Shown here: piece by piece, positions 11,556 to 53,654 of the stretch | Layout of the letters: every line of letters starts with the position of its first letter | Position numbering within the stretch: the first letter of the stretch is position 1 | Origin: Betaproteobacteria bacterium | GTDB taxonomy: Bacteria; Pseudomonadota; Gammaproteobacteria; Burkholderiales; SG8-41 | Length of the DNA: 64,000 bases | NCBI GenBank assembly: GCA_900299145.1 | Contig: OMIN01000152.1 | Span: forward strand, 14,886 to 78,885 | Reading direction: 5' to 3' | Position numbers and translations under genes: made by a program | The notes under the pieces: model-generated | What the model was told of the DNA's origin: nothing | The model's input: the letters and a program-made list of their open reading frames with translations, nothing else | The model's database searches: none

Positions 11556-12529
11556 TCCGCCTTGATTTTGGCGGCTTTTGCCACCTTGCTCCAGCGCGCG
11601 AATTCCTGTTTCAGGAATGCGGTGTAGGCCTCGGGTGAAGCTGAGGTCATCGGTTCGAATCCGCCAGAGATGAATTTTTCCTTGAGTTCGGGTGCGTGTG
11701 CGGCTTTGGTGATGGCGCCATGCAGCCGCTCGACGATGATACGCGGGGTTTTCGCCGGCGCCATGATCGCGTACCAGTTGGTGGATTGCAGCGCTGGGAA
11801 ACCCTGCTCGGCCACCGTCGCCACCTCCGGCAGCAAGGGGCTGCGCCGCTCGGGCGTGATTGCCAGCGCGCGCAGCTTGCCGCTTTTCACCGAGGGGAAG
11901 AGCACGGGCAAATCCATCGCCATGCCCTGCACGTGGCCGCCCAGCAAATCGGTGAGTGCAGGCGCGGCACCCTTGTAGGCGACAGCCTGTATCTTGATAC
12001 CCGCGGTAAGGTTCATCAACTCGATCAGCATGCGTGTCGTGCCGCCCGCGCCCGCCGTGCCGAAATCCAGCTTGCCCGGCTGGGTCTTGGCCAGCGCCAC
12101 CAGTTCCTTCAACCCACGCGCGGGCAGCGCCGGATGCACCACGATCAACACTGGACTCATCACCACAGTGGTGATACCCGCGAAATCGTTGATGCTGTCG
12201 TAGGGAATCTTCGCGTAGGTAAACGTGGTCATTACCAGCGGGCTCAAACCCGCGAGGCCGATGGTATAACCATCGGGTGCAGCCTTGGCAACATGATCGG
12301 TACCAATGATCGCGTTGGCACCCGGACGATTCTCGACAATGAAGTTTGTGCCCAGACTTTCGCTGAGCTTGGGCGCAATCAGACGCGCAATGATGTCGTT
12401 GGCACCGCCGGGTGGAAAGCCAATCACCAGGCGCACGGGTTTCGCGGGATATTCCTGTGCAAAAGCCGCTACGGTGAGTAACAGACTTGTTGCGCCAATG
12501 AGATTTCGTAAGTAATTGTTTTTATTCAT
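11552..12529 (-). CDS. Bug/TctC-family substrate-binding protein
   Basis: Signal peptide followed by YPAKPVRLVIGFPPGGAND and AYKG. The start codon and first 8 codons lie inside AT-element copy 4. Confidence 0.85.
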   Translation of the reverse strand: MNKNNYLRNLIGATSLLLTVAAFAQEYPAKPVRLVIGFPPGGANDIIARLIAPKLSESLGTNFIVENRPGANAIIGTDHVAKAAPDGYTIGLAGLSPLVMTTFTYAKIPYDSINDFAGITTVVMSPVLIVVHPALPARGLKELVALAKTQPGKLDFGTAGAGGTTRMLIELMNLTAGIKIQAVAYKGAAPALTDLLGGHVQGMAMDLPVLFPSVKSGKLRALAITPERRSPLLPEVATVAEQGFPALQSTNWYAIMAPAKTPRIIVERLHGAITKAAHAPELKEKFISGGFEPMTSASPEAYTAFLKQEFARWSKVAKAAKIKAE

Positions 12530-16165: not shown

Positions 16166-16264
16166 GGAGTTCTCCAAAAACTTTTTGATGGCGAATTATA
16201 GGCCGTGCCCATGACCGGCGGCTCATCCTCTACAATGCTCGCCAACCAATGCCTTGAGGACGAT

Positions 16265-17245
16265 ATGCGCAACGCAGTCACACGAATACTTTTGCCGATG
16301 GCGCTGTTGCCAGTACTGGCCGCGCCGACGTTATGGGCGGTGGACGTCTACCCCACCAAACCCGTGCGCTTTCTTGTCGGCTTCCCGCCCGGTGGCGCGA
16401 ATGATCTGGTGGCGCGCGTGGCCGCTGCGCGCATGGGGCCGCGCCTGGGCCAGCAGGTGGTGGTCGACAACCGCAGTGGCGCCGGCGGCAACATCGCGCA
16501 CGACCTCGCAGCCAAGGCCACGCCCGACGGATACACCATGGTGCTGGCGTCGGTGGCCTCACTTGCCATGAGCCCCGGCCTCTATGCCAAATTGCCGTAC
16601 GATCCGATCAACGATTTTGCACCAGTGGCGCAACTGGTCGATGTCAGCAGTCTCATTTCCTCGCACCCGTCCAGCGCATCACGCACATTGAAGGATTTTG
16701 TCGCGCGCGCCAAACAGCAGCCCGACAAGCTCACGGTGGGCAATCCGGGCACCGGCAGCATCGCGCATCTCGCGTTTGAATTGTTCAAAGCCACCGCGGC
16801 TATCAAGGTCGTCAACGTGCCCTACAAAGGCGGCGGGCCGGCGGTGATCGATGCCATGTCGGGGCAGGTGGAGTTTCTCGCGGGTGTGATTTCCACCGGC
16901 GCGCCGCATGTCAAAACCGGCAAGCTGCGCGGCCTCGGCGTCACCAGTCTGAAGCGCTCGCCGATTTTGCCTGATGTGCCCGCCGTGGCTGAAGGCGGCT
17001 ACCCCGGCTTCGAGGCGAGCGGCTGGCTGGGCATTGCGTTCCCCACGAAAACGCCCGCGCCCATCATTGAACGCATGCACAGGGAAGCTGTTGCCGTAAT
17101 GGCCATGAGCGACGTGCGCGAGCAATTGCAAAATGCCGGGCTGGAACCGGCGGTGAAGGACACCGAAGCGTTTCGCGCTTACATCAAAGCGGAACTGGGG
17201 AAGTGGACGCGGCTGATCCGTGAAGCGGGGATCAAGGCGGATTGA
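16265..17245 (+). CDS. Bug/TctC-family substrate-binding protein
   Basis: Start at MRNAVTRILLPMALL (signal peptide), then YPTKPVRFLVGFPPGGAND and VPYKGG. Confidence 0.9.
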   Translation: MRNAVTRILLPMALLPVLAAPTLWAVDVYPTKPVRFLVGFPPGGANDLVARVAAARMGPRLGQQVVVDNRSGAGGNIAHDLAAKATPDGYTMVLASVASLAMSPGLYAKLPYDPINDFAPVAQLVDVSSLISSHPSSASRTLKDFVARAKQQPDKLTVGNPGTGSIAHLAFELFKATAAIKVVNVPYKGGGPAVIDAMSGQVEFLAGVISTGAPHVKTGKLRGLGVTSLKRSPILPDVPAVAEGGYPGFEASGWLGIAFPTKTPAPIIERMHREAVAVMAMSDVREQLQNAGLEPAVKDTEAFRAYIKAELGKWTRLIREAGIKAD

Positions 17246-17295: not shown

Positions 17296-18267
17296 CTACT
17301 GCGCCTTTAATCCGATCTCCTTCGCAATCTTGCCGTAACGCGCATGATCTTCGCGGATGAATTTCGCAAAGTGCTCCGGCGATTCGGTATACACATCCAG
17401 CCCGGATGCCACCAGCTTGTCGCGCACTTCCGGCAGGCCCATCGCGCGGTTGGCTTCGGCATTGAGCTTCGCGACGATATCGCGCGGTATGCCTGCCGGC
17501 CCAACAATGCCAAACCAGCCCCCCGACACATAACCCGGCAGCGTCTCGGCAATCGTCGGGTAGTCCGGGTAATTCGTCAGCCGCGCCGTGCGCGCCACCC
17601 CCAGCATGCGCATGCGCCCGGCCTGCACATACGGCTGCAGCGCGGGGAACGAGCCGAACGTTGCATCGACGCGACCCGCAATCACCTCGCCCGCCAGTTG
17701 CGGCAACCCTTTGAACGGCACATGCAGATAGGTAAAGCCTGCCTGAAAGCGAAACATTTCCGTGGCGAAGTGCAAAAACGCGCCTTCGCCATTCGAGCCG
17801 AAACTCACTTTGCCGGGATTGGCCTTCGCGTGCGCGATCAACTCGGCGACATTTCGCGCGGGGAATGCATTGCTCACCGCCAGCCCCATGAAGTTCGTCG
17901 CCATCAACGCAATCGGCGTGAAATCCTTCAACGCATCGTAAGGCACTTTCCTGAATGCATGCGGCACAATCGCCATCGAGCCGCCGTTGCCGCAGCCAAG
18001 CGTGTAACCGTCGGCAGGCGCCTGTGCCACCATGCCGTGCCCCAACATGCCACTCGCCCCCGCGCGGTTGTCGATCACAAACTGCTGCCCCAGCCGCTCG
18101 CCCATTTTGAACGTGATTATGCGCACGAGCACGTCGCAGGTGTCGCCGGGAAGTACCGAGGCGATGACGCGTACGGATTTGTTGGGGTAGGGTTGGGCGT
18201 GGGATTGATTGGGGAGTGCGGCTAGAGGCAATAGGGCTACGCAAAGAGCTAAACGGGTTATACGCAT
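17296..18267 (-). CDS. Bug/TctC-family substrate-binding protein
   Basis: Start at MRITRLALCVALLPLAA, then YPNKSVRVI, NRAGASG and VPFKG. Confidence 0.9.
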   Translation of the reverse strand: MRITRLALCVALLPLAALPNQSHAQPYPNKSVRVIASVLPGDTCDVLVRIITFKMGERLGQQFVIDNRAGASGMLGHGMVAQAPADGYTLGCGNGGSMAIVPHAFRKVPYDALKDFTPIALMATNFMGLAVSNAFPARNVAELIAHAKANPGKVSFGSNGEGAFLHFATEMFRFQAGFTYLHVPFKGLPQLAGEVIAGRVDATFGSFPALQPYVQAGRMRMLGVARTARLTNYPDYPTIAETLPGYVSGGWFGIVGPAGIPRDIVAKLNAEANRAMGLPEVRDKLVASGLDVYTESPEHFAKFIREDHARYGKIAKEIGLKAQ

Positions 18268-18341
18268 AATAGGTTCTCCAGCGTGGCTACAGGATGGCAA
18301 TGCAGGCTTTTCGATACGATATCAAATCGTAGTGCGGTATA

Positions 18342-23498: not shown

Positions 23499-24500
23499 TC
23501 AGATTTTCTCCTTCAACCCCGCGGCGTTGATGACTTTTGTCCACTTGGCGTGGCCCGACGCGATCAGCGCACCGAATTCCTCCGGCGTGTTGTGCGTCGG
23601 CTCCGCACCGTCGGCGATCATGTGCTCGCGCACATCGCGCATTTGCAGCACCTTGATAATTGCCGTGTTGAGCTTGTCGACGATGGGGCGCGGCGTTTTG
23701 GCGGGCGCGACAATGCCGTTCCAGCTATTCGCCTCATAGCCCGGATACCCCTGTTCGGCGACGGTGGGCACATCGGGCAGGGCACGGGCGCGTTTGTCGC
23801 CGGCCACCGCCAGTGCACGCAGCCGGCCGCCGCGCACGTGGGGCACGGTAGCGATGGCGCCGCTGAACGCCACCTGCACTTCGCCGCTCAGAAGGCCGAT
23901 GATGGCGGGGCCGGTGCCTTTGTAAGACACGCGTGTGAGTGTCATGCCCGTCATCATTTTGAGCAACTCCATCGGCAGCGCCGTGGCGTTGGAGCTGGTG
24001 CCGTAATTGAATTCACCGGGCTTGGCTTTCACCAGCGCGACCAGATCCTTGAGTCCCTTCGCGGGCAGCGACGGGTGCACCACCAGCGCGCTCGCCGATG
24101 CTGTGGTCTGTGTGATGTACGAAAAATCCCGCAATGGGTCATACGGCGTTTTGCGCAGAATCGGCGTCATGCAGAACGTGCCAAGATTGGCGACCAGCAG
24201 CGTGTACCCGTCTGGCGCGGATTTGGCGGCGATTTCGGTGCCGATGGCGCCGTCTGCGCCACCGCGATTGTCGACTACAAACGAGCGGCCCATCATGTCG
24301 GAAAGACGCGAGGCGATGATACGCCCCACGGCATCGGTGCCGCCGCCGGCGGAGAACGGCGAGATAAAGCGCACGGGCTTGTTGGGGTAATCGTCGGCGG
24401 CCTGCGGCAAGCTAGCGGCCAATGCCAGCAACGTGGCAACCATGAACCGAGCGGCAGATTGCGGTAGCAGGGCTATTTCAGACATCGTACGGGTGGACAT
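23499..24500 (-). CDS. Bug/TctC-family substrate-binding protein
   Basis: Start at ATG 24500 (MSTRTMSEI) with GAGGAAG upstream, then YPNKPVRFISPFSAGGGTD and SYKG. Confidence 0.9.
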   Translation of the reverse strand: MSTRTMSEIALLPQSAARFMVATLLALAASLPQAADDYPNKPVRFISPFSAGGGTDAVGRIIASRLSDMMGRSFVVDNRGGADGAIGTEIAAKSAPDGYTLLVANLGTFCMTPILRKTPYDPLRDFSYITQTTASASALVVHPSLPAKGLKDLVALVKAKPGEFNYGTSSNATALPMELLKMMTGMTLTRVSYKGTGPAIIGLLSGEVQVAFSGAIATVPHVRGGRLRALAVAGDKRARALPDVPTVAEQGYPGYEANSWNGIVAPAKTPRPIVDKLNTAIIKVLQMRDVREHMIADGAEPTHNTPEEFGALIASGHAKWTKVINAAGLKEKI

Positions 24501-24718
24501 TGCAGCTTCCTCATTGTGTGCGGCTGCTGTGGCCGCAGCGTTGTGGTAGTTGATTTTCTGTGGTGTCCTGAAGCTGATATTCGTTGCACATCGGTAAGGA
24601 AGAAAATGCACTCTCCGAATGCTATTGCCTATGTAACGAGACGCGGCAAAGCATCGGCAACGGGCAATGCATTCCGATTCGAACTTCAGACTCAGGATGT
24701 CAAATAGAGTGGGTATGG

Positions 24719-24771: not shown

Positions 24772-25887
24772 CTAAGCGCCTTGCAGCACCCGCAGATAGT
24801 GCCGGTCAAAAGCCGCAAGCTGGCTTTCCAGTTCGCTGTACGGCCCGGGTTCCCACGCAGCCGAGCGCATGCCGGCCTGTGCGCCCTCGCACAGCAACCA
24901 GTCCTGCCGGTTGGTGTTATCCCAGAACTCGACCGCGGGTTTCGCGCTGAAGCCCGAGGCGGCCATGGCGTCGCGGTGAAAATACCAGTCGCAGGTGACG
25001 CGCGTGCGGCCGATGTCGAGCGGCTCGATGCGGTGTACCAGCACGTAGTCGGGATGCAGTGAGATAAAACCCGAGGGAAACAGCGTGTAGTAATACACGC
25101 GGCCACGGTCGGCTTCGTTCAGCGCCGCAAATGGCGGCGCGCATCGTTCGCCGTGCGTGGTCATGCTGCCCTGCGGGTTCGACAGCGTCATTGGGCCGCC
25201 GAGTACGGCGCCCTCCTCCAGATCGTTTTCGCTATTGCGAAACGGCGTGAGACTGTTCAACTGCGGATGCGCGCCGGGGCAGTGGTAGCACTCGCTGTAG
25301 TTGTGGAAAAACAGTTTCCAGTTGGCGTCGATGTTGTAGGCAGTTTGATGCGCGGAACGCAATTCCGCCAGCGGCCAGCGCTCGAACTTACCCTCGCGGG
25401 CATCAAGCTGCGGCAGCGCATCGGCAAACGGCACGGGGTTCTCTGCGAGGTTGACGAATACAAAGCCGTGCCACTGCGCCAGTGCCGCACGTTTGAGATT
25501 CCAGCGCGAAGCATCGAAGCCCGTGACCTCGCGCATGTGCGGCGCCGCGGCCAATGTGCCGTCAAACGTGTAAAGCCACGAATGGTAGGGACAGCGAATG
25601 GCGCCCCCGCCGAACGTGCCCCGGCGGTCCTCACACAGCCGCGTGCCGCGGTGGCGGCAGATATTGTGATGCGCGTAAAGGTGGCCTTCCGCGCCGCGCA
25701 CCACGATCACGCCGCTGCCGGCGACCTCAAGCGTGAGGTAATCCCCCTCGTAGCGCAACGCCGACACATGGCCCGCAAGCAGCCAGTGGCTCTGGAATAT
25801 GCGGGTTTGTTCCTCGCGCCAGACGTCGGGGCTGGTGAAATACTCGCCGGGCAGCGTGCGCTGCCCGTGAGCGGTGCGGGGCTTCAC
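24772..25887 (-). CDS. Rieske (2Fe-2S) aromatic-ring-hydroxylating oxygenase alpha subunit
   Basis: Rieske ligands CRHRG...CPYHSW, plus a C-terminal catalytic domain containing YHCPGAHP. Confidence 0.85.
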   Translation of the reverse strand: MKPRTAHGQRTLPGEYFTSPDVWREEQTRIFQSHWLLAGHVSALRYEGDYLTLEVAGSGVIVVRGAEGHLYAHHNICRHRGTRLCEDRRGTFGGGAIRCPYHSWLYTFDGTLAAAPHMREVTGFDASRWNLKRAALAQWHGFVFVNLAENPVPFADALPQLDAREGKFERWPLAELRSAHQTAYNIDANWKLFFHNYSECYHCPGAHPQLNSLTPFRNSENDLEEGAVLGGPMTLSNPQGSMTTHGERCAPPFAALNEADRGRVYYYTLFPSGFISLHPDYVLVHRIEPLDIGRTRVTCDWYFHRDAMAASGFSAKPAVEFWDNTNRQDWLLCEGAQAGMRSAAWEPGPYSELESQLAAFDRHYLRVLQGA

Positions 25888-25905
25888 CTTCGAGTACTTG
25901 TTGGG

Positions 25906-26493
25906 CTAATTGTTGATGCCCAATTCCTTGCGCAGATCGGCCACCGCCTGATCCTTGGTCTTGCCCAGGCGTGGCGCGCGCTGGCCAATCGGCAGGTTTT
26001 CGATTTCCGGCACGATTTTCATCGCCACGAACACCGGCCCCGGCTCTTCCATGATGCGCTTCACGTTCACCTGGAATGATTCAAGATTGGTGTAGGCATA
26101 GCTCGACGAATAGCCGCAGCCCTTGGCAATGACGTCATAGGCGATCTTGCTGGCATTAGGCACGGGCTGGCCGCCGGTGGTGGCGTAGCACTCGTTATCC
26201 AGCACGAAGTGCACAAAGTTTTTCGGCGCCTGCTCGGCCACCATCGACAGCGAGCTCAAACTCATTTGCAGATCGCCTTCGGAGTCGAACAGCACGACCT
26301 TGTTCTTCGGCCGCGCCAGCGCCAGCCCCAGCGCGAACGACGCGTGGCCGCCCATCGCCGGATCACCGAGCGAGAGATCACGGTTTTTGTTGGTGCTGAT
26401 TTTGTCCCAGTGACGGTTTGCGCGGCCCGAGATAACAATGGCGTCGCCGCGATGCGGGGCAAACACCTTCAGGATTTCTTCCATTTTCATCAT
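25906..26493 (-). CDS. TPP-dependent decarboxylase beta subunit (sulfopyruvate/phosphonopyruvate decarboxylase-like)
   Basis: TPP-binding C-terminal-domain pattern (GDPAMGGHASFALGLALA, DSEGDLQMSL, LDNECYATTGGQ). Confidence 0.7.
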   Translation of the reverse strand: MMKMEEILKVFAPHRGDAIVISGRANRHWDKISTNKNRDLSLGDPAMGGHASFALGLALARPKNKVVLFDSEGDLQMSLSSLSMVAEQAPKNFVHFVLDNECYATTGGQPVPNASKIAYDVIAKGCGYSSSYAYTNLESFQVNVKRIMEEPGPVFVAMKIVPEIENLPIGQRAPRLGKTKDQAVADLRKELGINN

Positions 26494-26523
26494 GATGATT
26501 TTTCCTTCGCGAATTGGGCGATA

Positions 26524-27036
26524 TTAACGATTAAAGCCGTGATATTCGTCGCCGACCAGTATGCAGACCGGACGCTGGAATTTTTTCGCTTCCTCGAACG
26601 CAACCGAAATGCGTGGCGCGTCTTCACTGTTTTCCACCAGGTAATACTGGATATGGAATGCGTTGAGGAACGGCTCGGTGTAAGTGGCTGCGGTGTCCTT
26701 GTTCACGCCATGACGCGTGTAACCGCGGTAGCCCACGATCAGCACCACCGGAATGTTCATGCCCATGGTCCAGCCGCGCATGGAATCGCCCGATTCCATG
26801 AGGCCGGTGTTCTGGATCAGAATCACCGGCTTGGCGCCACCGATGTGCAGGCCCGCCGCGCACGAAAACGCCAGCCCCTCACGCGGTACCGGCACCAGCG
26901 TGATCGTCGGGTCGGCCTTCATCAGCGTATAGAGCCAGTTGGTTTCGGAATCCGGCAGCCACACCACGTGGGTGATGCCGTGTTTTTTCATTTCAGCCAG
27001 AACGATTTCCGGACTGAGACTGCCTTCGGTGGTCAT
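26524..27036 (-). CDS. TPP-dependent decarboxylase alpha subunit (ComD-like)
   Basis: TPP pyrimidine-binding N-terminal-domain pattern (VPVPREGLAFSCAAGLHIGG, IQNTGLMESGDS). Sits directly upstream of the beta subunit gene. Confidence 0.7.
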   Translation of the reverse strand: MTTEGSLSPEIVLAEMKKHGITHVVWLPDSETNWLYTLMKADPTITLVPVPREGLAFSCAAGLHIGGAKPVILIQNTGLMESGDSMRGWTMGMNIPVVLIVGYRGYTRHGVNKDTAATYTEPFLNAFHIQYYLVENSEDAPRISVAFEEAKKFQRPVCILVGDEYHGFNR

Positions 27037-27168
27037 GAGCTTTCTCCCTGGGGTTGCGTCGGGTTATGTTGACTATGATGACTGGTTGACGAATGCTGGA
27101 ACTCGATTGATGCAACTTGCCGATTTTAACCACAATCTGGCGTTGTTGATCCGTAATGGCGAATTGTT

Positions 27169-27197
27169 ATAACTATCTGTTTTTATAGGGAATTTTA
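27169..27197 (+). repeat. AT-rich element, copy 9
   Basis: TAACTATCTGTTTTTATAGGGAATTTTAA. Its 3' end includes the stop codon of the DinB-family gene (minus strand). Confidence 0.7.
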
Positions 27198-27707
27198 ATA
27201 GCTCTGCGGCGCCTCGCGCAGAAACACCGGTAAATCGGTCACCGGCGCGCGATGCCCCTTCACATTGAACATCATGTCGCCGGCAAAGCCGCGGTGATAC
27301 GCCGTGTGGTGGTATAGATGCAGCAGCATTTCGCCTTGCGACATCACCACGCGGTTGCCGCCGATCAACACCACCGGCCGCCGGTCGGCCAGCGTTTCGT
27401 CGGTTTGCTTGCTACTCCACTGCTCATACCACTGGTCTATAGCCTGCTGGTTGGCCCACCACTCGGCGAGCGTGGGCGATTCGGCGGAATTGCGCGCCGT
27501 CATCTGGTGATCGCGGCCTTCCAGATGCGCCTGCCAGATGAGATCGATGACGTAAATATGATTCATCGTGTGCACGATGTTCTTGAAGAGACTCGTGCGC
27601 GGCTTCATCGCCTCGCCCTCGGGCAGCGCGGCAATGGCGTCGTACCAAACCTTGTTCGACCACGTGTTGTAGCGCGTCAGCATGCGCGCGGTTTGTGTGT
27701 TAATCAT
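27195..27707 (-). CDS. DinB-family protein
   Basis: TRYNTWSNKVWYDAIAALPE and a HLYHHTAYHRG-type His triad pattern. Confidence 0.75.
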   Translation of the reverse strand: MINTQTARMLTRYNTWSNKVWYDAIAALPEGEAMKPRTSLFKNIVHTMNHIYVIDLIWQAHLEGRDHQMTARNSAESPTLAEWWANQQAIDQWYEQWSSKQTDETLADRRPVVLIGGNRVVMSQGEMLLHLYHHTAYHRGFAGDMMFNVKGHRAPVTDLPVFLREAPQSY

Positions 27708-27839: not shown

Positions 27840-29594
27840 TTACGAGCGCTTGCCCGCCGCCGCCAGTTTCGCGTCCCAATCCTTCGGCAACTGAATCTTC
27901 TTCGCCGTCGGAAAACCCAGTACGCCATTGTGCGCGAACACATAAATGCTGTTGCGCGCCGGGTCGCCGGTGACGCAGGTGAGAAAATCTTCCGGCCGCC
28001 ACACCATCGGCACGAGCCGGTTCGGGTCGTCGGACTCGTGATCCACCTTGGGGATGTCGCCCTTGGCCACGGCCTCTTTCAGATTCCACAGCGGCTTTTG
28101 CGTCCAGTCGCGCTGGATGCGTTCCCACTGGTGCGCGGGCACGCGCGCCTGCTCCCACAATGCCTTTTGAAAATCGCGTTTGCTCCAGCCGGATGCGGCG
28201 ATCGTCTCCGCGATCAGCGGCGACAGCAGCAACTGCGGACGAAGTGAGTCGAGGCCCTGGCCGGTGGAGAACATCAGTTGCCATGAGTACTGGCGAACCA
28301 CCGCATCACTGATGTAGGGCATCAGCTCCTGCGCCGTTGCGCCCGACACCGACGAAATGTGATTGCCGCCAGTGTGGCGCGAAATCATCACCGTGCTGTC
28401 GTCGGGGTAAAAGCCGAAGTCGGCCGCGCTGTTGGTCCAGCCGAGTTTCTTTACCACGTCTTCGTTTTCCGCGACCACTACGCGCCAGGTGTTGCCAAAA
28501 GTCGCCTTGTCATTCTTGTGCGGCAGGAAGCCAGCGACATTGCGCAGATACAGCCGCCAAAAGCGCCCCACGGAGGTGTTGGCCTTGAAGCCGTCTCGCA
28601 TCACGCCTTGTGTGTAATTAAAACCAAGCTGTTTGATGATCGGACCGTTCAGCACAATCAGCGTTTCACCGCCCGGCGTATTGCCACTGTGCTCGACGCC
28701 ATAGCCGTGATCGGCCATGGCCTCGACCAGCGCCACCAGCACCGGCATGTATTCCGGCTTGCAGCCCGCCATGACGCCATTCACCGCAATGCTCCAGATG
28801 GTTGCCGCGCGGTTGTCCGGCAGGATGGTGCCAAGCGAATCGTCAGGCGCGCGATCCGTGAACTTGAGGAACGCTTCCACTTTCTCCACGGTCGGCGGCA
28901 CGATGGGCAGCCCATCCGACAGTTCGTTGTCGTAGAAATAATCGTTCACTTCATCGAAGCTGCCCTTGAACACCACGTCGCGTGCGCCGGGTTCGTTGTC
29001 CGTGCCCGCGCTCTTGGGCGGTTTCAAAAGATTGTCGATCACGTGATCCAGCGTCACGTCGAGCACGTTCTTGCGCAGCTGCTCCGTGCTCTGCACACCG
29101 GGGTGGCCGACCACTTTCGCCACCGGCAGATTGGGCATGCCCAACCCCTTTGAGGCCGCCGTGGCGAGCGTCATGAAGCCCTCGCCCACCAGCGTGGAGG
29201 ACGGAAAGCCGCCCATTTCACCCGATGCACTGGCCCGCAACACGGCGGGCGTGCAGGAGCCTCAACAGCCCATGCCGCTGATCACGGCATCGACGCCCGC
29301 CTCCTTGAACTTTTGCGGCAGCGCCGCCACGATGGCGCGCTCATCGCTGCCGTGCGTGGAGCCGAATTCCTTCCAGCTTACGAACTTAACGTCCGGGTAG
29401 CGCGCCTTGATGCCTTCCTCCAGAAACTCGAACACCTCGTCGCCACGGAACACCATGTCCCACACTTGTGCGATGGTTTTGCCGTTAAGTGTGTCTAGGC
29501 GCTTGGCGAGCGGTTTGATTTTGGATTGGCGCGGGCTGCGCGGCCACAATGCTTCACAGGCTTCGTAGCGGCCGTCGCTGGAGGAACTGGACAT
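27840..29594 (-). CDS. Candidate selenoprotein: UGSC-motif domain continuing into a ~470-aa domain of unknown function (TGA 29262-29264 read as Sec111)
   Basis: ORFs 29262..29669 and 27840..29243 share a frame, separated by TGA plus 6 sense codons. The junction reads GVDAVISGMGC-U-GSCTPAV. A SECIS-like hairpin follows. ATG 29594 has AAGGAG upstream. The downstream ORF has no SD or ATG of its own. Confidence 0.65.
29226..29255 (-). promoter_or_regulatory. SECIS-like stem-loop downstream of the in-frame UGA
   Basis: mRNA reads UGA GGCUCC UGCAC-GCCCGC [CGUGUU] GCGGGC-CA-GUGCA: 11 bp with a 2-nt bulge. The apical loop contains GU and starts 18 nt after the UGA. Confidence 0.5.
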
Positions 29595-29751
29595 GGCGGA
29601 CTCCTTGAATGGTGCGATGAGGGGAACAGGAAGAGCAGGAATTATCCCGCGAGCAAACCAGCGCGGCAACCGCGTTGCAACGCGATGTGGATTGCGCCAT
29701 AGCGCAATCCGGCGATAATCGCGGCTGATAAAAATTCAGGGAATGTAAATC

Positions 29752-31934: not shown

Positions 31935-33698
31935 CTACAGGGCCGCTTTGTCGAGCGGCACCCGAATCTCACACATAACTCCGCCCCCCTCCAAATTCCG
32001 CGCCGAAGCTCTACCCCCATGAAACTCCGCAATCAACCGCACAATATAGAGCCCCAACCCCAAATGCGGATTCTCGCCGCTGGCCTCCTTACGCACGGAA
32101 ATCATCGAATCAAACAATCGGTCGGCAATCTCCGGCGGCAGCGGCGGGCCGCTATTGCTGAACTGCAGCACGGCCTCGTTGCCTTCGCGTTGCAGGCTGA
32201 TGGCGATGGGCGTGCCCGGCGTAGCGAAGTCGGCGGCGTTGGCGGCGAGTTTGTCTAACATTTGCGCGAACAGGTCGGGTGCACCGGTTAGCGTGACCGG
32301 CTGTTCGGTCATCGTCAGCTCGAACTGGCATTGCGGATAAGCGCCACCGCCGTTGCTACCATAGCCGCTGACGCAGCCCGCGAGCACAGCCTTGGCGTCG
32401 AACGGTGTGCGTTCTTCGTTGCGCACGGCCTGTTCGAGGCGCGTAGCTTCGGCCATGCGGGTGAGAATGGTTTCGAGCCGGTTGAGCCCGCCCTCGGCGC
32501 GCTCCACGTACACGCTGACGTCCTGCGGCATGTTGTGCAGTTTGACGTTGTCGAGTGAGGAGCGTACCACCGCAATGGGTGTGCGCAGTTCGTGGCTTAA
32601 ACGTTGCGCGAGTTTTTCGAGATGGGCGTTGTATTGCGCGAGCCGTTCCAGCATGGTGGAGAACGCGCGCGACAGGTCGCCGATTTCGTCGTTGGCGTTT
32701 TCGGCGGTGGCGAGGCCCTGTATGCGGCCTTGCGAATCGATGGCGTTTTCGGCCTCGTCGCGCAGCCGCCGCAGCCGTGTGCTCACGCGCGAGGCGAACA
32801 GCAGCAGCACCAGCGCCGCCGCGGCAAACGCGATCAGTGTCACCGCCGCCAGTTGTTGAAACGCGCGGTTGCCGAGCGAAACAATCGCATCGGTGTTTTC
32901 CTCGACCACCACCGCGCCGACGACTTTGTCACCGACCCACACCGGATGCACGGCCGATAGAATGACGTTGCGCCCCTGCGGTCCGGCGCGGCGCCGCAGA
33001 CCCGGCGTGCCGTCGAGCGCGCGTTCGAGTTCGCGGCCGCCGAACACCACGTCGTTGGGGATGAATTCTTCTTCGGGATGCGCGGGCGGCGGGAACATGC
33101 GTTTGAACAGCGGCTCAAGCGCAATGTTCACCACTTTTTCCAGCGGGCCAAAACTCACGGCGCTGCCACTGTATTTTTGCTTGTTGTCGAGATTGCCTGC
33201 GGTGGCCACCAGTTGCAGCTTGGTGTCGATCACCCAAATACGCAGACCCGCGCGTGCGAGACCGGTGACGATGACTCGAATTTCGTCGGTGACTTTGGTG
33301 GCGGGTGGCGCGGGCTCCGGCGGTGCTGGAGGTGCGAGGGGTTTAGGAGGTTCCAACTCGCCGGTGTGCTCGGCTTCGGCTGCGGTGGGGATTGGGGTGG
33401 TTACTTGTAATTCTTTGATTTCATTTATCTTTTTTGATGGGCCCTGCAGTTCCAATAATCGGGGCCGATCCTGCAACGCGGTGGCGATGCCGCGCGCTGC
33501 GGCAATCACTTGCTGCTCCTGATTTTCGCGCAGCAGTTTTTCCATCGCCTTCACATAGGTGTAACCCACCCAGGGGATGACCAGCAGCACCAGCGCCACT
33601 AACACCACTTGCCCGTGCAGGCCGAAGAGGCGGGGGAGGCGCGGCAGGCGAGAGGATTTTTTTGTGGACACGGATTGGGTTGGCGGCATATTCATCAA
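31935..33698 (-). CDS. Sensor histidine kinase
   Basis: N-terminal TM, a second TM, H-box SHELRTPIAV, N/G boxes and a C-terminal HATPase domain. Contains a diverged in-frame AT-element copy (11). Confidence 0.85.
   Translation of the reverse strand: MMNMPPTQSVSTKKSSRLPRLPRLFGLHGQVVLVALVLLVIPWVGYTYVKAMEKLLRENQEQQVIAAARGIATALQDRPRLLELQGPSKKINEIKELQVTTPIPTAAEAEHTGELEPPKPLAPPAPPEPAPPATKVTDEIRVIVTGLARAGLRIWVIDTKLQLVATAGNLDNKQKYSGSAVSFGPLEKVVNIALEPLFKRMFPPPAHPEEEFIPNDVVFGGRELERALDGTPGLRRRAGPQGRNVILSAVHPVWVGDKVVGAVVVEENTDAIVSLGNRAFQQLAAVTLIAFAAAALVLLLFASRVSTRLRRLRDEAENAIDSQGRIQGLATAENANDEIGDLSRAFSTMLERLAQYNAHLEKLAQRLSHELRTPIAVVRSSLDNVKLHNMPQDVSVYVERAEGGLNRLETILTRMAEATRLEQAVRNEERTPFDAKAVLAGCVSGYGSNGGGAYPQCQFELTMTEQPVTLTGAPDLFAQMLDKLAANAADFATPGTPIAISLQREGNEAVLQFSNSGPPLPPEIADRLFDSMISVRKEASGENPHLGLGLYIVRLIAEFHGGRASARNLEGGGVMCEIRVPLDKAAL
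33408..33436 (+). repeat. AT-rich element, copy 11 (diverged, inside the histidine kinase CDS)
   Basis: TAATTCTTTGATTTCATTTATCTTTTTTG aligns best with copy 3. Encodes KKINEIKEL on the gene strand. Confidence 0.5.
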
Positions 33699-36231: not shown

Positions 36232-39200
36232 ATGAGCATCGCCGCCCCGTCTTCCACCCCAACTGGCTTGCTGCGGCGACTGCTGCGGCCGTTGATCGGC
36301 GATGTGCAATGGCTGGCGCCGGGATGGTTGCGAGGACTGGGTAACGCGGCAGGCTTCTTTGCGATGGCGTTTTCAAGCTGGGTGCGCTCCGACATGCGGC
36401 GCGCCGCGATTGCGGGCGGCGTGGGCCTGGCGCTCATCGCCGGTGGCGTGGCGGGCAAGGCATGGTACGACCGTTTACCCAAGCCGCATGAGGTAACGGT
36501 GGAGGTCGTCACGCCTGACCCGACGCCGGTAGATCAGCCTAATGCCAAGCCCGATCCGTTGATGATCAAATTCAGCGAGTCGGCGGCCACCCTAGCGGGC
36601 GTGGGCAAGGATGTCACGACGGGCATTGAGGTCGAGCCACGAATTGACGGCACATGGAAGTGGGCTGACGACCGCACGCTGACGCTGACGCCGAAAACCG
36701 ATTGGCCGGTCGGCACCGAAGTTGTGGTGACGCTGGCAAAGAAAGGTTTGTTCGCCGAGCACGTGCGGCTTCAGGATTACCGCGTGAAATTCACCACCGC
36801 GCCGTTCGTGGCGAAAATCACCGAAGCGCAGTTTTATCAGGACCCCGCCGACCCCGCGTCGAAGAAAATCGTCGCCACGGTGAACTTCACCCACCCGGTG
36901 GATGCGGCCGATTTTGAAAAGCGCGTCGTGCTGCGCGAGGAGGGCAAGGATGGAGTGATCCTGGGCCTGGGTGCGGACGACAAAAAATTCAAGGTGACTT
37001 ACGACAAATTCAAGGTCAATGCCTACATTCATTCCGAGCCGATGCCGATTCCGCCGCAGCCGGTGAAAATCGCCGTCACCGTCGAAGCGGGTGCGAAATC
37101 GTCGCGCGGCGGCAACGGCATCACGGCGCCGGTGAAACAGTCCGTCACGGTGCCCGGCCTTTACAGCCTGGCGCTGCAGGGGATGTCGCTGACGCTGGCG
37201 GAAAATGAACGGTTGGAGCCGGATCGCATTTTGATGGTGAACCTGTCCGCCGATACGCACGAAAAGGAAGTTGCGGGCAAGGTGCGCGCATGGGTACTGC
37301 CGCTGCATCACCCGAACACCAAACCGGAGGAACGGAAGCAACCCTTCGCGTGGAACAACCCGCAGCAGATTGGCCCGGAAGTGCTGGCGCAGTCTGAACC
37401 ATTGAAACTCGAAGCCGTGCCCGCTGAGCGAGAGCATGTGCAGCAGCACGGCTTCAAATACAACGCCGAGGCCGGCCGCTATGTGTATGTGAAAGTCGAG
37501 AAGGGCATGAAGTCCTTCGGCGGCTACCTGATGGAAAAGGAGCGCGATGGCATCATGCGCGTGCAGCGTTACCCACGCCAGTTGCGCATAGCCTCCCAAG
37601 GCGCGCTGCTGGCGCTGTCGGGCGAAAAGAAACTTGCTGTGCTGGTGCGCGACGTGGAAGGCATCCGCTTTGAAGTGGGGCGCTTGCTGCCGCAGCAGTT
37701 GCAGCATCTGGTTACCATGTCTGATGGCGGCTTTGCCAAACCGAATTTCGACAAGGGCTTTGACGACGACAATCTGGCCGAGCGCTACACACAGGTTGAA
37801 GACGCGCCGCCCAGCGAGCCCGGTAAGCCGAACTATCTTGCGCTCGACCTCGGCAAATATCTCGATGGGGAAGGTGGAAGGCGCGGCATTTTCTTCGTCA
37901 AGGTCGAAAGCTATGATCAGAAAAACAAGCGTACCACCGGCGCGGTCGATAAACGGCTGGTCGTGGTCACCGACCTGGGCATGGTGGTAAAGCGCGCGAT
38001 TGATGGTTCGCAGGATGTGTTTGTGCAGTCGATTGCAACCGGCCAGCCGGTGGCGGGCACGGCCATCGAAGTGCTGGGCCGCAACGGGCAGGTGATCGCC
38101 TCGCAAACGACGGACGCCGCCGGGCGCGCCCGGTTGCCGGACTTCGCGGGCTTTACCCGTGAGAAAGCACCTGCGGTGTATGTGGCGCGCAAGGCAGGTG
38201 ACACCTCGTTCCTGCCGTATGAACGCAACGACCGCGTGATCGACTTTTCGCGCTTCGATGTCGGCGGCGTCAACAGCAGCGCGGATGCGGGCAAGCTGTC
38301 GGCGTTTCTGTTTTCGGATCGCGGCATTTACCGGCCGGGGGAGGAAATTCGCGTTGGCATGATCGTCAAGGCGGCTGACTGGGCGAGCCGAATCACCGGC
38401 GCGCCGCTGGAATATGAACTGACCGACGCGCGAGGGCTGGTGCTACGCAAGGACAAAATCAAACTTTCGGCGAGCGGCTTCGAGGAAGTGCGCCACGCCA
38501 CGCAGGACACCTCGCCCACCGGTGACTACACCGTGTCGCTCTACATCGTAAAGGATGGCCAGCGCGACAGCCAGTTGGGATCGGTGACGGTGAAGGTGCA
38601 AGAATTCATGCCGGACCGGCTGAAAATGAGCGCACGCTTTAGCCGCGAATCGATTGAGGGCTGGGTGACACCGCAGGACTTGAAGGCGAATGTGTCGTTG
38701 CAAAATCTGTTTGGCACGCCCGCCGAGGCACGCCGCGTGACGGCGACCATGACTTTGCAGCCCGCGTTGTTGTCGTTCCCGAAGTATCGTGACTATCAAT
38801 TCTACGACCCGCAGTTCGCTAAAGAAGGTTTTGCCGAGCCGTTGTCTGATAGCAAAACCAACGACAAAGGCGAAGTTGAACTGGATTTGAACCTCGCGCG
38901 ATTCGCCAAGGCCACGTACCGATTGCATCTGGTCACGCAGGGCTTTGAGGCCGACGGTGGGCGCGGTGTGTCGGCGGAAGCGGCGACTCTGGTGTCGAAC
39001 ATGCCGTTCCTCGTGGGCTACAAGGCCGACGGCGATCTGAATTATGTGTCGCGGGCCAGCAAACGCAGTGTGGAGCTGATTGCCATTGACCCGAAGGCCG
39101 CGAAAACCGACGCCAGGGATTTGAAGCTGATTCACTTCGAGCGCAAGTTTGTGTCGGTGCTGACCAAACAGGCCAACAATACCTACAAATACGAATCGCG

Positions 39201-42081
39201 TGAAAAGCGCATTCAGCTTGATGAAAAGCCGTTCACCATCGCTGCTGCGGGTGCGAAAGTGGCGTTGGCCACTGACGCGCCGGGCAGTTACGCCTATGTC
39301 GTGCGCGACGCGGTGGGGCAGGACTTGGCGCGCGTGTCATATGAAGTGGCGGGTGCGGCGAACCTTACGCGCTCGCTGGAGAAAAACGCTGAGTTGCAGG
39401 TAAAGCTCAGCAAAAAAGACTTTGCGGCAGGCGAAGACATCGAACTGTCGATACAAGCGCCGTATGTCGGCTCGGGCCTTATCACTATCGAGCGGGAGCG
39501 CGTCTTTGCGCACGCGTGGTTCACCAGCAAGACCACGGCCTCCACGCAGAAGATCACGTTACCCAAGGATTTCGAGGGCAACGGTTACGTGACGGTGACG
39601 TTCATCCGCGATGCAGGATCGGATGAAATTTACGCGAGTCCGCTAGCTTACGGCGTGCAACCTTTTTCGGTGAATCTGGACCGCCGCAAACTCAAAGCCA
39701 CGGTGAAGGCCCCCGACCTGGTGAAGCCCGGCGACACCATCAAATTCAGGCACTCGACCAATCAGCCGTCGCGTATCGTGGTATTCGCGGTGGATGAAGG
39801 CATTCTGCGGGTGGCGCGTTACAAGACGGCAGATCCGCTGGGTTTCTTTTTCCAGAAGCGCGCGCTGGAGGTGAAAACCTTCCAGATACTTGATTTGGTT
39901 TTGCCGGAATTTAAGCGCTTCATGGCGGCGGCTGCGCCCGGCGGCGACGGCGATGGCGCGCTGGGCAAGCATCTGAATCCGTTCAAGCGTAAGAACGACA
40001 AACCGGCAGCGTATTGGTCGGGCATTATCGAAAGCGGCCCGCAGGAGCGCGAACTCACGTGGCAGGTGCCGGAAACCTTTAACGGCACGCTGCGGGTGAT
40101 GGCGGTGGCGGTGAACGAGGATTCCATCGGCGTGTTCGAGAAGAAAACCTTGTCTCGTGGCGACTTTGTGTTGTCACCGAACGCGCCGTTGACGGTGACA
40201 CCGGGCGATGAATTCGATGTAAGCGTCGGCGTGGCGAACAACGTGGCAGGTTCGGGTGCGGATGCGCAGATCGCGGTGACGCTGGCGGCTTCGCCGCATC
40301 TGGAAATCGTGGGTGCCGCGATCAACACCATCAAAGTGGGCGAACTGCGCGAAGGTGTCACCAGCTTCAAGGTGCGCGTGAAGGACGAATTGGGCGCGGG
40401 GACGCTGAACTTCAGCGCGGCTGGCATGAACAAGAGCGCAAAGCTGGGTACCAGCATCAGCGTGCGTCCGGCACAGCCGCATATCACGTTGCTGACTGCG
40501 GGCATTGTACGCAATGGAACAGCCGAAGCGCCGGTGACGCGCAATCTGTATCCGCACTATCGCAAGCTGGAGGCGAGCATTTCGCATGTGCCGTTGGCGC
40601 TGGCGCATGGCCTCACGGCGTATCTGCAAGGCTTCCAGTATTCGTGCACCGAGCAACTGGTGAGCATGGGCATGCCTGCGCTGGTGCTTGGCAACCGGCC
40701 GGAATTTGGTTATGTGAAATCGAAGGACTACAAAACGCTTGACGATCTGATTAACGTGCTACGAGGCCGGCAAAACGGCGAGGGCGCGTTTGGTCTGTGG
40801 GCGGCGAATGCGCACGTGGTGGATTATGTGTCGGTCTACGCCATGCACTTTTTGATTGAGGCGCGCGAGCGGGGCCGTGCTGTGCCCAATGACATAATTG
40901 TCAATGGAAACAATTACTTACGATCATTGGCCAGCAACGACAGCGGCACACTCGCCGACGAACGCACACGCGCCTACGCCATCTATGTGCTGACGCGGCA
41001 GGGCATAGTCACCACCAACTTTGCGGCGGCGGTGCAAAAGCGGTTGGAAACGAATCACCCCAAGGTGTACGCGCAGGACATTGCCACCGCCTACCTTGCC
41101 GCAAGTTATCAGTTGATGAAGCAACAGCGGCTGGCGGATCAGTTGATTGCCGGCGTGACGTTTGAAAAGCGCCCCGCAGACGGTGGAGCCTACATTGACA
41201 CACTCACGTCCAACGGCAAATTGCTGGATGTCCTCGCGCGGCATTTCCCCGAGCGGCTGGCGAAGGTTTCGCCCAGTGTGGTGGAAAGCATGCTGAAGGA
41301 CATTGCCGCAGGCGGTTACAACACGCACTCTGCCGGCAACGCGATACTGGCGTTTGATGCTATGGCGGCTGCAAGTGAAAAGCTGCCGCCGGGCACCTTG
41401 GCCGCCGCCGAAGTGCTGCGCAATAACAACACGCGCGGGTTGGTTCTGCCTCCGAATGCCGTGCCTCGTGCCAGTTTCTCGGTGGACGCGGCGAAGCTGC
41501 AATTCACCAACAAGGCGAATCTGCCCGCGTATTACGTGGTCGAGCAAACCGGTTTCGAGCGCGGCCTGCCGGAGAAAGAAATCAAGAATAGCCTTGAAAT
41601 CCTGCGCGAGTATGTCGATGCCAAGGGCAATCCGGTGAAATCGGTGAAGGTTGGCGACGAAATTGAAGTGCGGTTGAGGTTCCGCGTCATTGGCCGCGAG
41701 GGTGTGGACAACGCGGCGCTGGTGGATTTGTTGCCCGGCGGATTTGATCTGGTGCTGAACACTGCGCCCGCGCAGCAACAGGAGGGTGAAGGTGAGGGAC
41801 GGGAAGGACGCGGTGAAGCGGAAAACCGCAAGTGGCGCGCGCCGATTGGGATCAAGGGCACGCAGCAGCGTCCGATATGGCAGCCTGACTACGCAGACCT
41901 GCGCGAAGACCGTGTGGTGCTCTACGGTTCAGTCAGCAAGGACATCCAGGAATTCGCCTACCGCATCAAGGCCACCAACACTGGTACGTTTGTGGTGCCG
42001 CCGGCGTACGGCGAGTCGATGTATGAGCGCAGTGTACAGGCGCGGTCGCTGGGGGCGAAGATGACGGTGGAAAAGCGCTAG
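36232..42081 (+). CDS. Bacterial alpha-2-macroglobulin-family protein (1949 aa), thioester type
   Basis: Very large MG-domain protein. CTEQ thioester motif at 40645-40656 (FQYSCTEQLV). Followed by pbpC, as in yfhM-pbpC operons. N-terminal TM anchor. Confidence 0.9.
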   Translation: MSIAAPSSTPTGLLRRLLRPLIGDVQWLAPGWLRGLGNAAGFFAMAFSSWVRSDMRRAAIAGGVGLALIAGGVAGKAWYDRLPKPHEVTVEVVTPDPTPVDQPNAKPDPLMIKFSESAATLAGVGKDVTTGIEVEPRIDGTWKWADDRTLTLTPKTDWPVGTEVVVTLAKKGLFAEHVRLQDYRVKFTTAPFVAKITEAQFYQDPADPASKKIVATVNFTHPVDAADFEKRVVLREEGKDGVILGLGADDKKFKVTYDKFKVNAYIHSEPMPIPPQPVKIAVTVEAGAKSSRGGNGITAPVKQSVTVPGLYSLALQGMSLTLAENERLEPDRILMVNLSADTHEKEVAGKVRAWVLPLHHPNTKPEERKQPFAWNNPQQIGPEVLAQSEPLKLEAVPAEREHVQQHGFKYNAEAGRYVYVKVEKGMKSFGGYLMEKERDGIMRVQRYPRQLRIASQGALLALSGEKKLAVLVRDVEGIRFEVGRLLPQQLQHLVTMSDGGFAKPNFDKGFDDDNLAERYTQVEDAPPSEPGKPNYLALDLGKYLDGEGGRRGIFFVKVESYDQKNKRTTGAVDKRLVVVTDLGMVVKRAIDGSQDVFVQSIATGQPVAGTAIEVLGRNGQVIASQTTDAAGRARLPDFAGFTREKAPAVYVARKAGDTSFLPYERNDRVIDFSRFDVGGVNSSADAGKLSAFLFSDRGIYRPGEEIRVGMIVKAADWASRITGAPLEYELTDARGLVLRKDKIKLSASGFEEVRHATQDTSPTGDYTVSLYIVKDGQRDSQLGSVTVKVQEFMPDRLKMSARFSRESIEGWVTPQDLKANVSLQNLFGTPAEARRVTATMTLQPALLSFPKYRDYQFYDPQFAKEGFAEPLSDSKTNDKGEVELDLNLARFAKATYRLHLVTQGFEADGGRGVSAEAATLVSNMPFLVGYKADGDLNYVSRASKRSVELIAIDPKAAKTDARDLKLIHFERKFVSVLTKQANNTYKYESREKRIQLDEKPFTIAAAGAKVALATDAPGSYAYVVRDAVGQDLARVSYEVAGAANLTRSLEKNAELQVKLSKKDFAAGEDIELSIQAPYVGSGLITIERERVFAHAWFTSKTTASTQKITLPKDFEGNGYVTVTFIRDAGSDEIYASPLAYGVQPFSVNLDRRKLKATVKAPDLVKPGDTIKFRHSTNQPSRIVVFAVDEGILRVARYKTADPLGFFFQKRALEVKTFQILDLVLPEFKRFMAAAAPGGDGDGALGKHLNPFKRKNDKPAAYWSGIIESGPQERELTWQVPETFNGTLRVMAVAVNEDSIGVFEKKTLSRGDFVLSPNAPLTVTPGDEFDVSVGVANNVAGSGADAQIAVTLAASPHLEIVGAAINTIKVGELREGVTSFKVRVKDELGAGTLNFSAAGMNKSAKLGTSISVRPAQPHITLLTAGIVRNGTAEAPVTRNLYPHYRKLEASISHVPLALAHGLTAYLQGFQYSCTEQLVSMGMPALVLGNRPEFGYVKSKDYKTLDDLINVLRGRQNGEGAFGLWAANAHVVDYVSVYAMHFLIEARERGRAVPNDIIVNGNNYLRSLASNDSGTLADERTRAYAIYVLTRQGIVTTNFAAAVQKRLETNHPKVYAQDIATAYLAASYQLMKQQRLADQLIAGVTFEKRPADGGAYIDTLTSNGKLLDVLARHFPERLAKVSPSVVESMLKDIAAGGYNTHSAGNAILAFDAMAAASEKLPPGTLAAAEVLRNNNTRGLVLPPNAVPRASFSVDAAKLQFTNKANLPAYYVVEQTGFERGLPEKEIKNSLEILREYVDAKGNPVKSVKVGDEIEVRLRFRVIGREGVDNAALVDLLPGGFDLVLNTAPAQQQEGEGEGREGRGEAENRKWRAPIGIKGTQQRPIWQPDYADLREDRVVLYGSVSKDIQEFAYRIKATNTGTFVVPPAYGESMYERSVQARSLGAKMTVEKR
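40894..40920 (-). repeat. AT-rich element, copy 13 (inside the A2M CDS, in frame)
   Basis: ATAATTGTCAATGGAAACAATTACTTA. Together with the following CGA, the 16-nt string AAACAATTACTTACGA (40908-40923) is identical to copy 4 read in reverse. Encodes IIVNGNNYLR. Confidence 0.65.
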
Positions 42082-42090
42082 GAACGGGCG

Positions 42091-48311: not shown

Positions 48312-48477
48312 TGATGTATTGAGGATGCGATCACTTGCTCGTACGGTACCGTTTCTGCGCTTGGCCCCACGATACAGTACGAATTTGTAAGCAATTGTTT
48401 CGCGGCTACCATGGCCGCGAACTTTCACGTGCATGGGCAGTCAGGCTGGTATTCCCACAACGCCAAGGTTGCCTGCC

Positions 48478-53429: not shown

Positions 53430-53654
53430 GAGGACTCCCTCGGATTTACTGCAAGGGCTGGCAGTGTATCGTACGGCAGCCCCCCACCAGACTTGACACT
53501 GGCGTGTGCGTGACGATACCGTCACCCAGCTCGCCGTGGCGACGCTGCCATGGCGGTGCGGGTGTCGTAAACAAAGCAAAGTGGCCGCTGCTAAACCAAC
53601 CCCATACAGCGCGGCTACCCTTACACTGAAGAAACTCAAAATGGTGATGTACGC

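Follow-up and report, generated by a model that had tools for sequence, protein, structure and literature searches.

A UGSC-family gene with a probable in-frame selenocysteine codon, called as two genes on a betaproteobacterial contig

The DNA analysed here, referred to as the window, is a 64,000-nt stretch of Betaproteobacteria bacterium (assembly GCA_900299145.1, contig OMIN01000152.1, positions 14,886-78,885 of the forward strand). On its minus strand, two open reading frames (ORFs), 29262..29669 and 27840..29243, share one frame and are split by a TGA codon (29264-29262) and six sense codons (GSCTPA) that lead up to the GTG (29243) of the downstream ORF. A first-pass annotation, made from the sequence alone, had described this arrangement and proposed that the TGA specifies selenocysteine (Sec) within a 584-aa read-through product, and both the coordinates and the product were reproduced by translation. 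From ATG 29594-29592 the frame is uninterrupted apart from the TGA and comprises 584 sense codons, counting the UGA at position 111, where the context is ...KEAGVDAVISGMGC-U-GSCTPAVLRASASGEMGG... and the motif core reads GMGC-U-G-S-C-TPAV. The same annotation erred in stating that the downstream ORF has no ATG, since an in-frame ATG is present at 29216-29214 (codon 127), inside the conserved domain. Public gene callers start a 458-aa product at this ATG, beside a product of 110 aa, and an identical N-terminal 110-aa product is found on 22 contigs, where the public calls split the gene in the same way. These calls split one gene wrongly in two. The locus is also present on contigs ERZ27292200:k119_334530 (177 kb) and ERZ27275609:k141_7600200 (96 kb) and on a contig of 0.2-1 Mb.

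We scanned one genome per GTDB species, which gave 548 relatives, and kept the best 80 loci, whose genomes were colinear with the window protein over residues 1-584 in tblastn and contained 85 homologous copies. The homologous codon was TGA in 85/85 copies (80 species-representative genomes). These copies come from Beta-, Alpha- and Gammaproteobacteria and from Dehalococcoidia, the hosts including a cultured isolate, Steroidobacter flavus, and the flanks of the codon read ..DA(V/A)ISGMG(C/A)-TGA-GSCTPAV(L/M)RAS.., GSCTPA being constant in every copy. Close full-length homologs carry Cys at the Sec position, as in P0045 (CCGAC) and P0102 (ACGSC). Searched exhaustively, the representatives of 50%-identity clusters yielded 4830 related clusters, among which at least 15 full-length representatives (565-590 aa) have CG[SAGT]C at this position. 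The first-pass annotation had proposed an alignment of Cys-containing homologs across the junction, and the full-length CG[SAGT]C proteins proved colinear there. In many other related clusters the first residue is the one that directly follows Sec, as is typical of Sec forms cut short by gene callers. The ratio of nonsynonymous to synonymous substitution (dN/dS) against 13 relatives was 0.04-0.3 on both sides of the TGA, the proportion of synonymous differences (pS) reaching 0.40-0.46 already against the closest relative of the window gene; judged by these ratios, both halves of the predicted gene are under purifying selection. The pattern that the first-pass annotation had named as speaking against selenocysteine, namely homologs that end at GMGC and are followed by an independent downstream gene, was not what we found: all 85 copies keep the TGA and both of its flanks are conserved.

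The N-terminal domain was recognised by Pfam PF24696 (UGSC) with 81.9 bits, compared to a gathering score of 25, and the match covers profile positions 3-163 of 172 and spans the TGA. On the NCBIfam equivalog model NF041046 (147 positions), the window protein scored 41.1 bits and P0045 46.6 bits, whereas a short-form UGSC protein (176 aa, locus L087) in which U was replaced by C scored 124.1 bits. The distance between 41 and 124 bits marks the window protein as part of a divergent, fused subfamily and not as an equivalog of the short protein. The NCBI name "UGSC family (seleno)protein" is already attached to two truncated homologs, HEX2825046.1 and HSC95629.1. In the AlphaFold2 (AF2) model of P0045, the UGSC domain (about residues 30-185, equivalent to window 29040-29500) consists of repeated beta-alpha units, with moderate confidence for the N-terminal domain. 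When the full-length model was used in Foldseek, weak local matches to flavodoxin-like domains were returned (NQO1 and the flavin mononucleotide domain of flavorubredoxin, E of at least 0.01). A thioredoxin-like fold had been guessed for UGSC in 2008 (PMC2398784), but the weak matches of the P0045 UGSC domain were to flavodoxin-like proteins and not to thioredoxins.

A candidate bacterial selenocysteine insertion sequence (SECIS) hairpin begins 6 nt past the UGA. It is made up of a 5-bp lower stem, a 2-nt bulge, a 6-bp upper stem (29250-29245 with 29238-29233) and the apical loop CGUGUU (29244-29239), which begins 18 nt after the A of the UGA; both the sequence and the start of the loop agree, at 29255-29226, with the first-pass annotation. 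Published criteria for bacterial SECIS elements ask for a loop of 3-9 nt, an upper stem of 4-16 bp and a G in the first two loop positions (PMC13188914), together with 16-37 nt from UGA to loop and a minimum free energy (MFE) of no more than -7.5 kcal/mol (PMC13188914). The hairpin conforms on all four counts, with a 6-nt loop, a 6-bp upper stem, G-U at loop positions 2-3, and a UGA-to-loop spacing of 17 nt at an MFE of -18.5 kcal/mol. The earlier statement that it lies within the published spacing range was thus borne out, and its synonymous sites turned out to be frozen in the Sec forms.

This freezing became apparent when codon usage in the hairpin of 77 unique sequences was compared with the share that each codon has among its synonyms elsewhere in the same genes (background). 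GCC for Ala (background 37%), GUG for Val (53%), CGG for Arg (19%) and CCC or CCU for Pro (38%) were used in 77/77 sequences, ACG for Thr in 71/77 (43%), UUG in 65 of 71 Leu codons (12%) and AGU for Ser in 64/77 (6.5%). Three of these, UUG, CGG and AGU, are rare codons, and they occur in 83-100% of copies. In the same sequences, free variation was seen at the Gly and Ser codons just 5' of the stem and at the Ala codon of the bulge. By this comparison, conservation of the putative hairpin exceeds amino-acid constraint. Canonical pairing in the upper stem holds in 81-85 of 85 unique sequences, and the loop is always CGUG(U/A/C)U. In loci L048 and L049 a G-C pair has become A-U through a compensatory change on both sides, at the cost of an Ala-to-Val replacement. 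The window hairpin agrees fully with the family consensus. In the two Cys homologs examined, the equivalent residues are encoded by CCA..CUA-CGU and CCU-GCG-GUG-AUA-CGU, and the hairpin is not formed in that register. The divergent paralogs L053 and L016 and the short-form UGSC gene of L087 encode other peptides and form other stems there, once more with G-U in a loop that lies 18-24 nt after the UGA.

Collectively, the TGA in 85/85 copies, the Cys homologs, the PF24696 match across the junction and the frozen synonymous sites of the SECIS support the selenoprotein interpretation put forward by the first-pass annotation, and lead us to consider the gene at 29594..27840 (minus strand) as very probably a genuine Sec-encoding member of the UGSC family, in a long form. 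Its features are given in Table 1.

Table 1. Features of the UGSC gene and the TctC genes of the window (window coordinates).
Feature	Position	Strand	Description
Predicted selenoprotein coding sequence (CDS), complete	27840..29594	minus	584 aa plus TAA stop (27842-27840), Sec as residue 111; translation
Shine-Dalgarno AAGGAG	29601..29606	minus	6-nt spacer to ATG 29594; direct sequence reading
UGSC domain	29052..29549	minus	residues 16-181; alpha/beta, Sec between strand and helix; PF24696, AF2 model of P0045
Predicted recoded UGA	29262..29264	minus	Sec111, first residue of U-G-S-C; TGA in 85/85 copies; Cys in full-length homologs P0045, P0102, P0256 and others
Cys114	29253..29255	minus	presumed resolving Cys of U-x-x-C; invariant in UGSC-domain alignment
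Putative bacterial SECIS hairpin	29226..29255	minus	within CDS; UGCACGCCCGC[CGUGUU]GCGGGC-CA-GUGCA; fold and comparative data
C-terminal domain	27843..28988	minus	residues 203-584; without curated family; also a stand-alone protein of about 347 aa
Cys278	28761..28763	minus	in NGVMAGC; sole Cys among columns conserved in at least 90%, 75-sequence C-domain alignment
TctC genes	6803-7810, 11552-12529, 16205-17245, 17296-18300, 23499-24611, 52464-53684, 53655-54701, 59566-60612		

The C-terminal domain (C-domain) had no Pfam match over residues 203-584 at E <= 1, and no NCBIfam match at the thresholds used, either for this region of the full-length query or for a stand-alone paralog. Its family profile retrieved no relative among PDB sequences (E <= 1), and hmmsearch of PDB sequences with the family profiles likewise returned nothing. 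We aligned 75 diverse fused and stand-alone sequences, and the AF2 model built from this alignment reached a predicted local distance difference test (pLDDT) score of 93.8 and a predicted template-modelling score (pTM) of 0.93. The alignment contains the near-invariant motifs W-DGLP-xPPT and A-N-VMAGC-P, the latter including Cys278. Two candidate structural homologs were rejected: class I fumarate hydratase, with an E of 7.7e-4 but a template-modelling (TM) score of only 0.22-0.27, and Toblerone-fold amidohydrolases, with E > 0.1. The stand-alone C-domain proteins of about 347 aa form a large family, all of them annotated "hypothetical". Longer fusion proteins (P0281, P0309, P0398 and others) were also inspected, and their extra domains were uninformative.

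UGSC and C-domain occur both fused and as adjacent separate genes. Among the loci examined, 11/13 stand-alone C-domain genes lie immediately beside a short UGSC gene with an in-frame stop at the U position. The short UGSC genes of these split forms (about 150-176 aa) likewise contain an in-frame TGA (..TGD-U-GSC(S/T)SWSVH..) and form a different hairpin of their own. At L087 (GCA_964433345.1, 3757-7675), a long form, a CinA-domain gene, a stand-alone C-domain gene and a short UGSC gene stand in a row, and the split version is also seen in L014, L015, L020, L021, L030, L033, L036, L049 and L079. A 493-aa paralog at L023 (14890-16368, minus strand) has the C-domain after a CPTC-containing N-terminus, with a short Sec-UGSC gene just downstream. 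This N-terminus gave a weak, sub-threshold match to Pfam TraF (E 0.003) and is weakly thioredoxin-like; it appears to take the place of the UGSC domain, and the redox partner domains may be interchangeable.

In 20 loci, spread across phyla and including those of both Cys homologs, a gene whose product has about 310 aa and resembles thioredoxin reductase (TrxR) lies no more than 171 nt away, on the same strand. On TIGR01292 this TrxR-like protein reaches 213-251 bits, short of the equivalog cutoff, and its CAxCDG redox motif is conserved. Genes for selenocysteine insertion are likewise found near homologs: in relatives, selA, selB or tRNA-Sec is 1-3.5 kb from the homologous gene, and SelA and/or SelB is encoded 1.1-3.4 kb away in 9 loci. 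L049 has tRNA-Sec (anticodon TCA), SelA and SelB all within 3.5 kb of the homolog. The cluster at L049 (4444-10007) is composed of SelB (plus strand), tRNA-Sec (7283-7379, minus strand), SelA (minus strand) and the TrxR-like gene (minus strand), which is divergent from the UGSC-long gene at 10001, and the same 21 kb also holds more paralogs of UGSC and C-domain.

When 17 diverse UGSC domains were compared individually with family models, 8/17 matched the D-proline reductase protein PrdB and 5-7 of the 17 matched GrdB, GrdF, GrdH or TIGR01918; beyond UGSC_fam (17/17) and these selenoprotein B models, no family was matched more than once. Profile alignment (hhalign) to a PrdB-like selenoprotein in the data of Global Ocean Sampling (GOS) placed Sec on Sec and the +3 Cys on Cys (probability 74%, E 2.8e-5), with Cys114 opposite the Cys in that protein's U-x-x-C motif. 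These data suggest a distant relation between the UGSC domain and the Sec-bearing part of selenoprotein B (PrdB/GrdB) of the glycine and proline reductases; the relation would be one of remote homology and not of family membership.

The following mechanism can be proposed for the long form. UGA 29264-29262 would be decoded as selenocysteine during translation, and the hairpin would act as a bacterial SECIS that recruits SelB with Sec-tRNA(Sec) to the ribosome, as the comparative data and the known bacterial mechanism suggest. Sec111 and Cys114, placed at the strand-to-helix junction of the alpha/beta domain, would most likely cycle between the selenol/thiol and the selenenylsulfide state, with Sec111 serving as the nucleophile and Cys114 resolving it to the selenenylsulfide. 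Where a TrxR-type flavoprotein is encoded beside the gene, as in many genomes, it would use NAD(P)H to reduce the Se-S bond again. The C-domain, with its near-invariant Cys278, is likely to provide a substrate-binding or catalytic partner. We put this redox relay forward tentatively, as a possible mechanism short of a probable one. A more far-reaching proposal, which we regard as rather unlikely, is that UGSC, C-domain and TrxR-like flavoprotein constitute an unrecognised NAD(P)H-driven selenoenzyme system of Proteobacteria and Dehalococcoidia, that this system would correspond distantly to the Stickland selenoprotein B reductases, with the C-domain in place of the pyruvoyl subunit, and that it would act on a small substrate, perhaps a carboxylate taken up via the TctC-type binding proteins whose genes often flank the UGSC gene.

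Several observations weigh against the Sec-encoding, redox-active interpretation. The window protein does not reach the NF041046 cutoff (41 vs 125 bits), the NCBI model to which the first-pass annotation had pointed; the U-G-S-C tetrad that it named is present, and PF24696 matches above threshold. No experiment has been reported on any member of the UGSC family (PMC13188914). The 76-nt hairpin region has a z of -0.38 compared to dinucleotide shuffles and hence no stability beyond chance; given this unexceptional single-sequence energy, the significance of the hairpin comes only from the comparative data. Rfam returned no match, neither at gathering thresholds in the whole window nor at E <= 10 in 29100-29350, and no SECIS family was hit. 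The link to PrdB/GrdB consists of sub-threshold matches (E 1e-5 to 1e-3), those with listed scores reaching 19-22 bits against cutoffs of 300-602 (TIGR04483, TIGR01917, TIGR01918). The C-domain has no homolog of known function, and Foldseek against the PDB gave no convincing fold match for it. As regards the mechanism, tblastn found no TrxR-like gene in the 64-kb window, and a general thiol system would therefore have to serve here; apart from the TctC and TrxR-like genes, the neighbourhood is variable. Lastly, selA, selB, selD and tRNA-Sec are all missing from the 64-kb window, in which we found no tRNA of any kind, no SelA or SelB homolog by tblastn and no Sel-type Pfam domain among about 45 genes.

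This last result is what one would expect if the gene were a relic in an organism that has lost its Sec machinery, with translation halting at the TGA in a decaying or silent gene. We consider this very unlikely. The 64-kb window is, by estimate, a small fraction of the genome, and the absence of sel genes from it says little; against the closest relatives both halves are under strong purifying selection, with dN/dS of 0.04-0.06 at pS 0.4, the SECIS matches the family consensus perfectly, and the identical N-terminal product recurs on 22 independent contigs. A still less probable explanation, to which we give almost no weight, posits two independent genes, one for a 110-aa protein that ends at a true TGA stop and one for a protein of 458-467 aa that starts at GTG 29243 or ATG 29216. 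Gene callers have split the locus in this way on 22 contigs, an in-frame ATG is indeed available at 29216-29214, and TGA serves elsewhere in the window as an ordinary stop, ending 15/38 Pfam-supported genes, which shows that the genetic code is standard. However, the TGA falls within the Pfam UGSC domain (residues 16-181), of which each product would hold one half, the full-length Cys homologs are colinear with the read-through product, the GSCTPA codons between TGA and GTG are conserved in all 85 copies, and the synonymous sites of the hairpin are frozen only in TGA forms. Read-through without Sec, for example through a reassigned code or suppression by a near-cognate Trp- or Cys-tRNA, is hardly credible either, since TGA stops those same 15/38 window genes, homologs place Cys and not Trp or Gly at the UGA, the conserved hairpin is of the SelB type and stands at the canonical distance, and sel genes and tRNA-Sec adjoin homologs in several genomes.

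Besides the predicted Sec-encoding gene, the window contains several other features. Genes for TctC proteins ("Bug" receptors of the tripartite tricarboxylate transporter) number 8 in the window and flank the UGSC-long gene in 44/81 loci; their frequency is probably in part lineage background and not a specific link, as many of the loci are from Burkholderiales or other Betaproteobacteria. The remaining neighbours of UGSC-long genes are variable catabolic genes, next to the many TctC-type carboxylate-binding proteins. Directly downstream of the predicted selenoprotein gene of the window, on the same strand (24772-27707, minus), are four genes, one of them for a DinB-family protein. They also include a split thiamine pyrophosphate enzyme that resembles the alpha and beta subunits of sulfopyruvate/phosphonopyruvate decarboxylase (below cutoffs) and a Rieske oxygenase alpha subunit whose nearest model is the glycine betaine monooxygenase GbcA (228 bits, cutoff 670). 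The closest relative, L001, shares this gene order, which is not kept in more distant loci. Further away, 36232-44472 (plus strand) encodes a 1949-aa bacterial alpha-2-macroglobulin followed by a PBP1C-type penicillin-binding protein (Transgly, Transpeptidase, BiPBP_C), and 48433-49044 (plus strand) a 203-aa rhodanese-domain protein. By tblastn the window contains no paralog of the UGSC gene, and in a scan for other split ORFs the UGSC gene was the only credible case. Two more same-frame ORF pairs split by a single TGA, at 32857 (plus strand) and 50680 (minus strand), have coding-like GC content at third codon positions (GC3) and were dismissed: the former is antisense to a Pfam-supported histidine kinase (31935-33698) and the latter to an ORF (49893-51008) called on GC3 alone, without a Pfam match. 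Both pairs look like high-GC antisense artefacts and not like selenoprotein candidates.

At the level of the gene, our analysis amounts to a routine annotation correction, the split into 110 aa and 458 aa being present on 22 contigs for this organism alone. Homologs are recorded under the name "hypothetical protein", and many homologous clusters are apparently truncated likewise. UGSC proteins are among the most abundant selenoproteins of aquatic metagenomes. The fused or adjacent UGSC domain and 347-380-aa domain, the recurring TrxR-like gene, the sel genes beside some copies and the remote kinship with PrdB/GrdB together yield a testable three-component redox hypothesis for this long-uncharacterised family, and it is in this hypothesis that the wider value lies; a cultured carrier of a UGSC-long homolog is available in Steroidobacter flavus CGMCC 1.10759 (NZ_JBHSDU010000015.1, at about 2.1137 Mb).

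With respect to known systems, a UGSC-containing protein was first listed by Zhang & Gladyshev in 2007 as a selenoprotein of unknown function (PMC1976440), UGSC was then described as a major selenoprotein family in GOS metagenomes (PMC2398784), and a 2026 review still treats the family as uncharacterised (PMC13188914). Since the family has been catalogued since 2007-2008, the window gene is a new, misannotated member of it, in a fused long form, and not a new kind of system. It shares with the catalogued family (NF041046, PF24696) the U-G-S-C motif and the domain, but whereas the catalogued short form has about 150-176 aa, the window protein carries an additional C-terminal domain of 380 aa. 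It also resembles the "UGSC/Unknown_1 fusion" shown in Fig. S1A of PMC2398784, in line with the stand-alone 347-aa paralogs of its C-domain, and Unknown_1 may be this C-domain. The hairpin resembles the bacterial SECIS (the Zhang & Gladyshev model in PMC13188914, with E. coli fdhF as the prototype) in being a stem-loop directly after the UGA and inside the CDS; it differs in that its sequence is family-specific and without a match to an Rfam model, and it represents a putative SelB site.

A parallel outside the family is Stickland selenoprotein B (PrdB, GrdB, GrdF, GrdH; Pfam GRDB). Both have U-x-x-C after a hydrophobic strand, ..DAV(I/L)L.., and in both this motif precedes a helix and a ..E..GIPTV strand. 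In contrast, neither a PrdA/GrdE-type pyruvoyl proprotein nor GrdA was found among the Pfam-annotated neighbours of UGSC genes, and the partner of the UGSC domain is here an unrelated domain. The hosts differ as well, as UGSC-long genes are found mostly in Proteobacteria and in metagenome-assembled genomes of Dehalococcoidia and not in amino-acid-fermenting anaerobes as in Stickland systems. Re-reduction of the glycine reductase system is the task of thioredoxin and thioredoxin reductase, both encoded in the same gene cluster, and this clustered thioredoxin reductase would be the analogue of the TrxR-like neighbour of UGSC genes.

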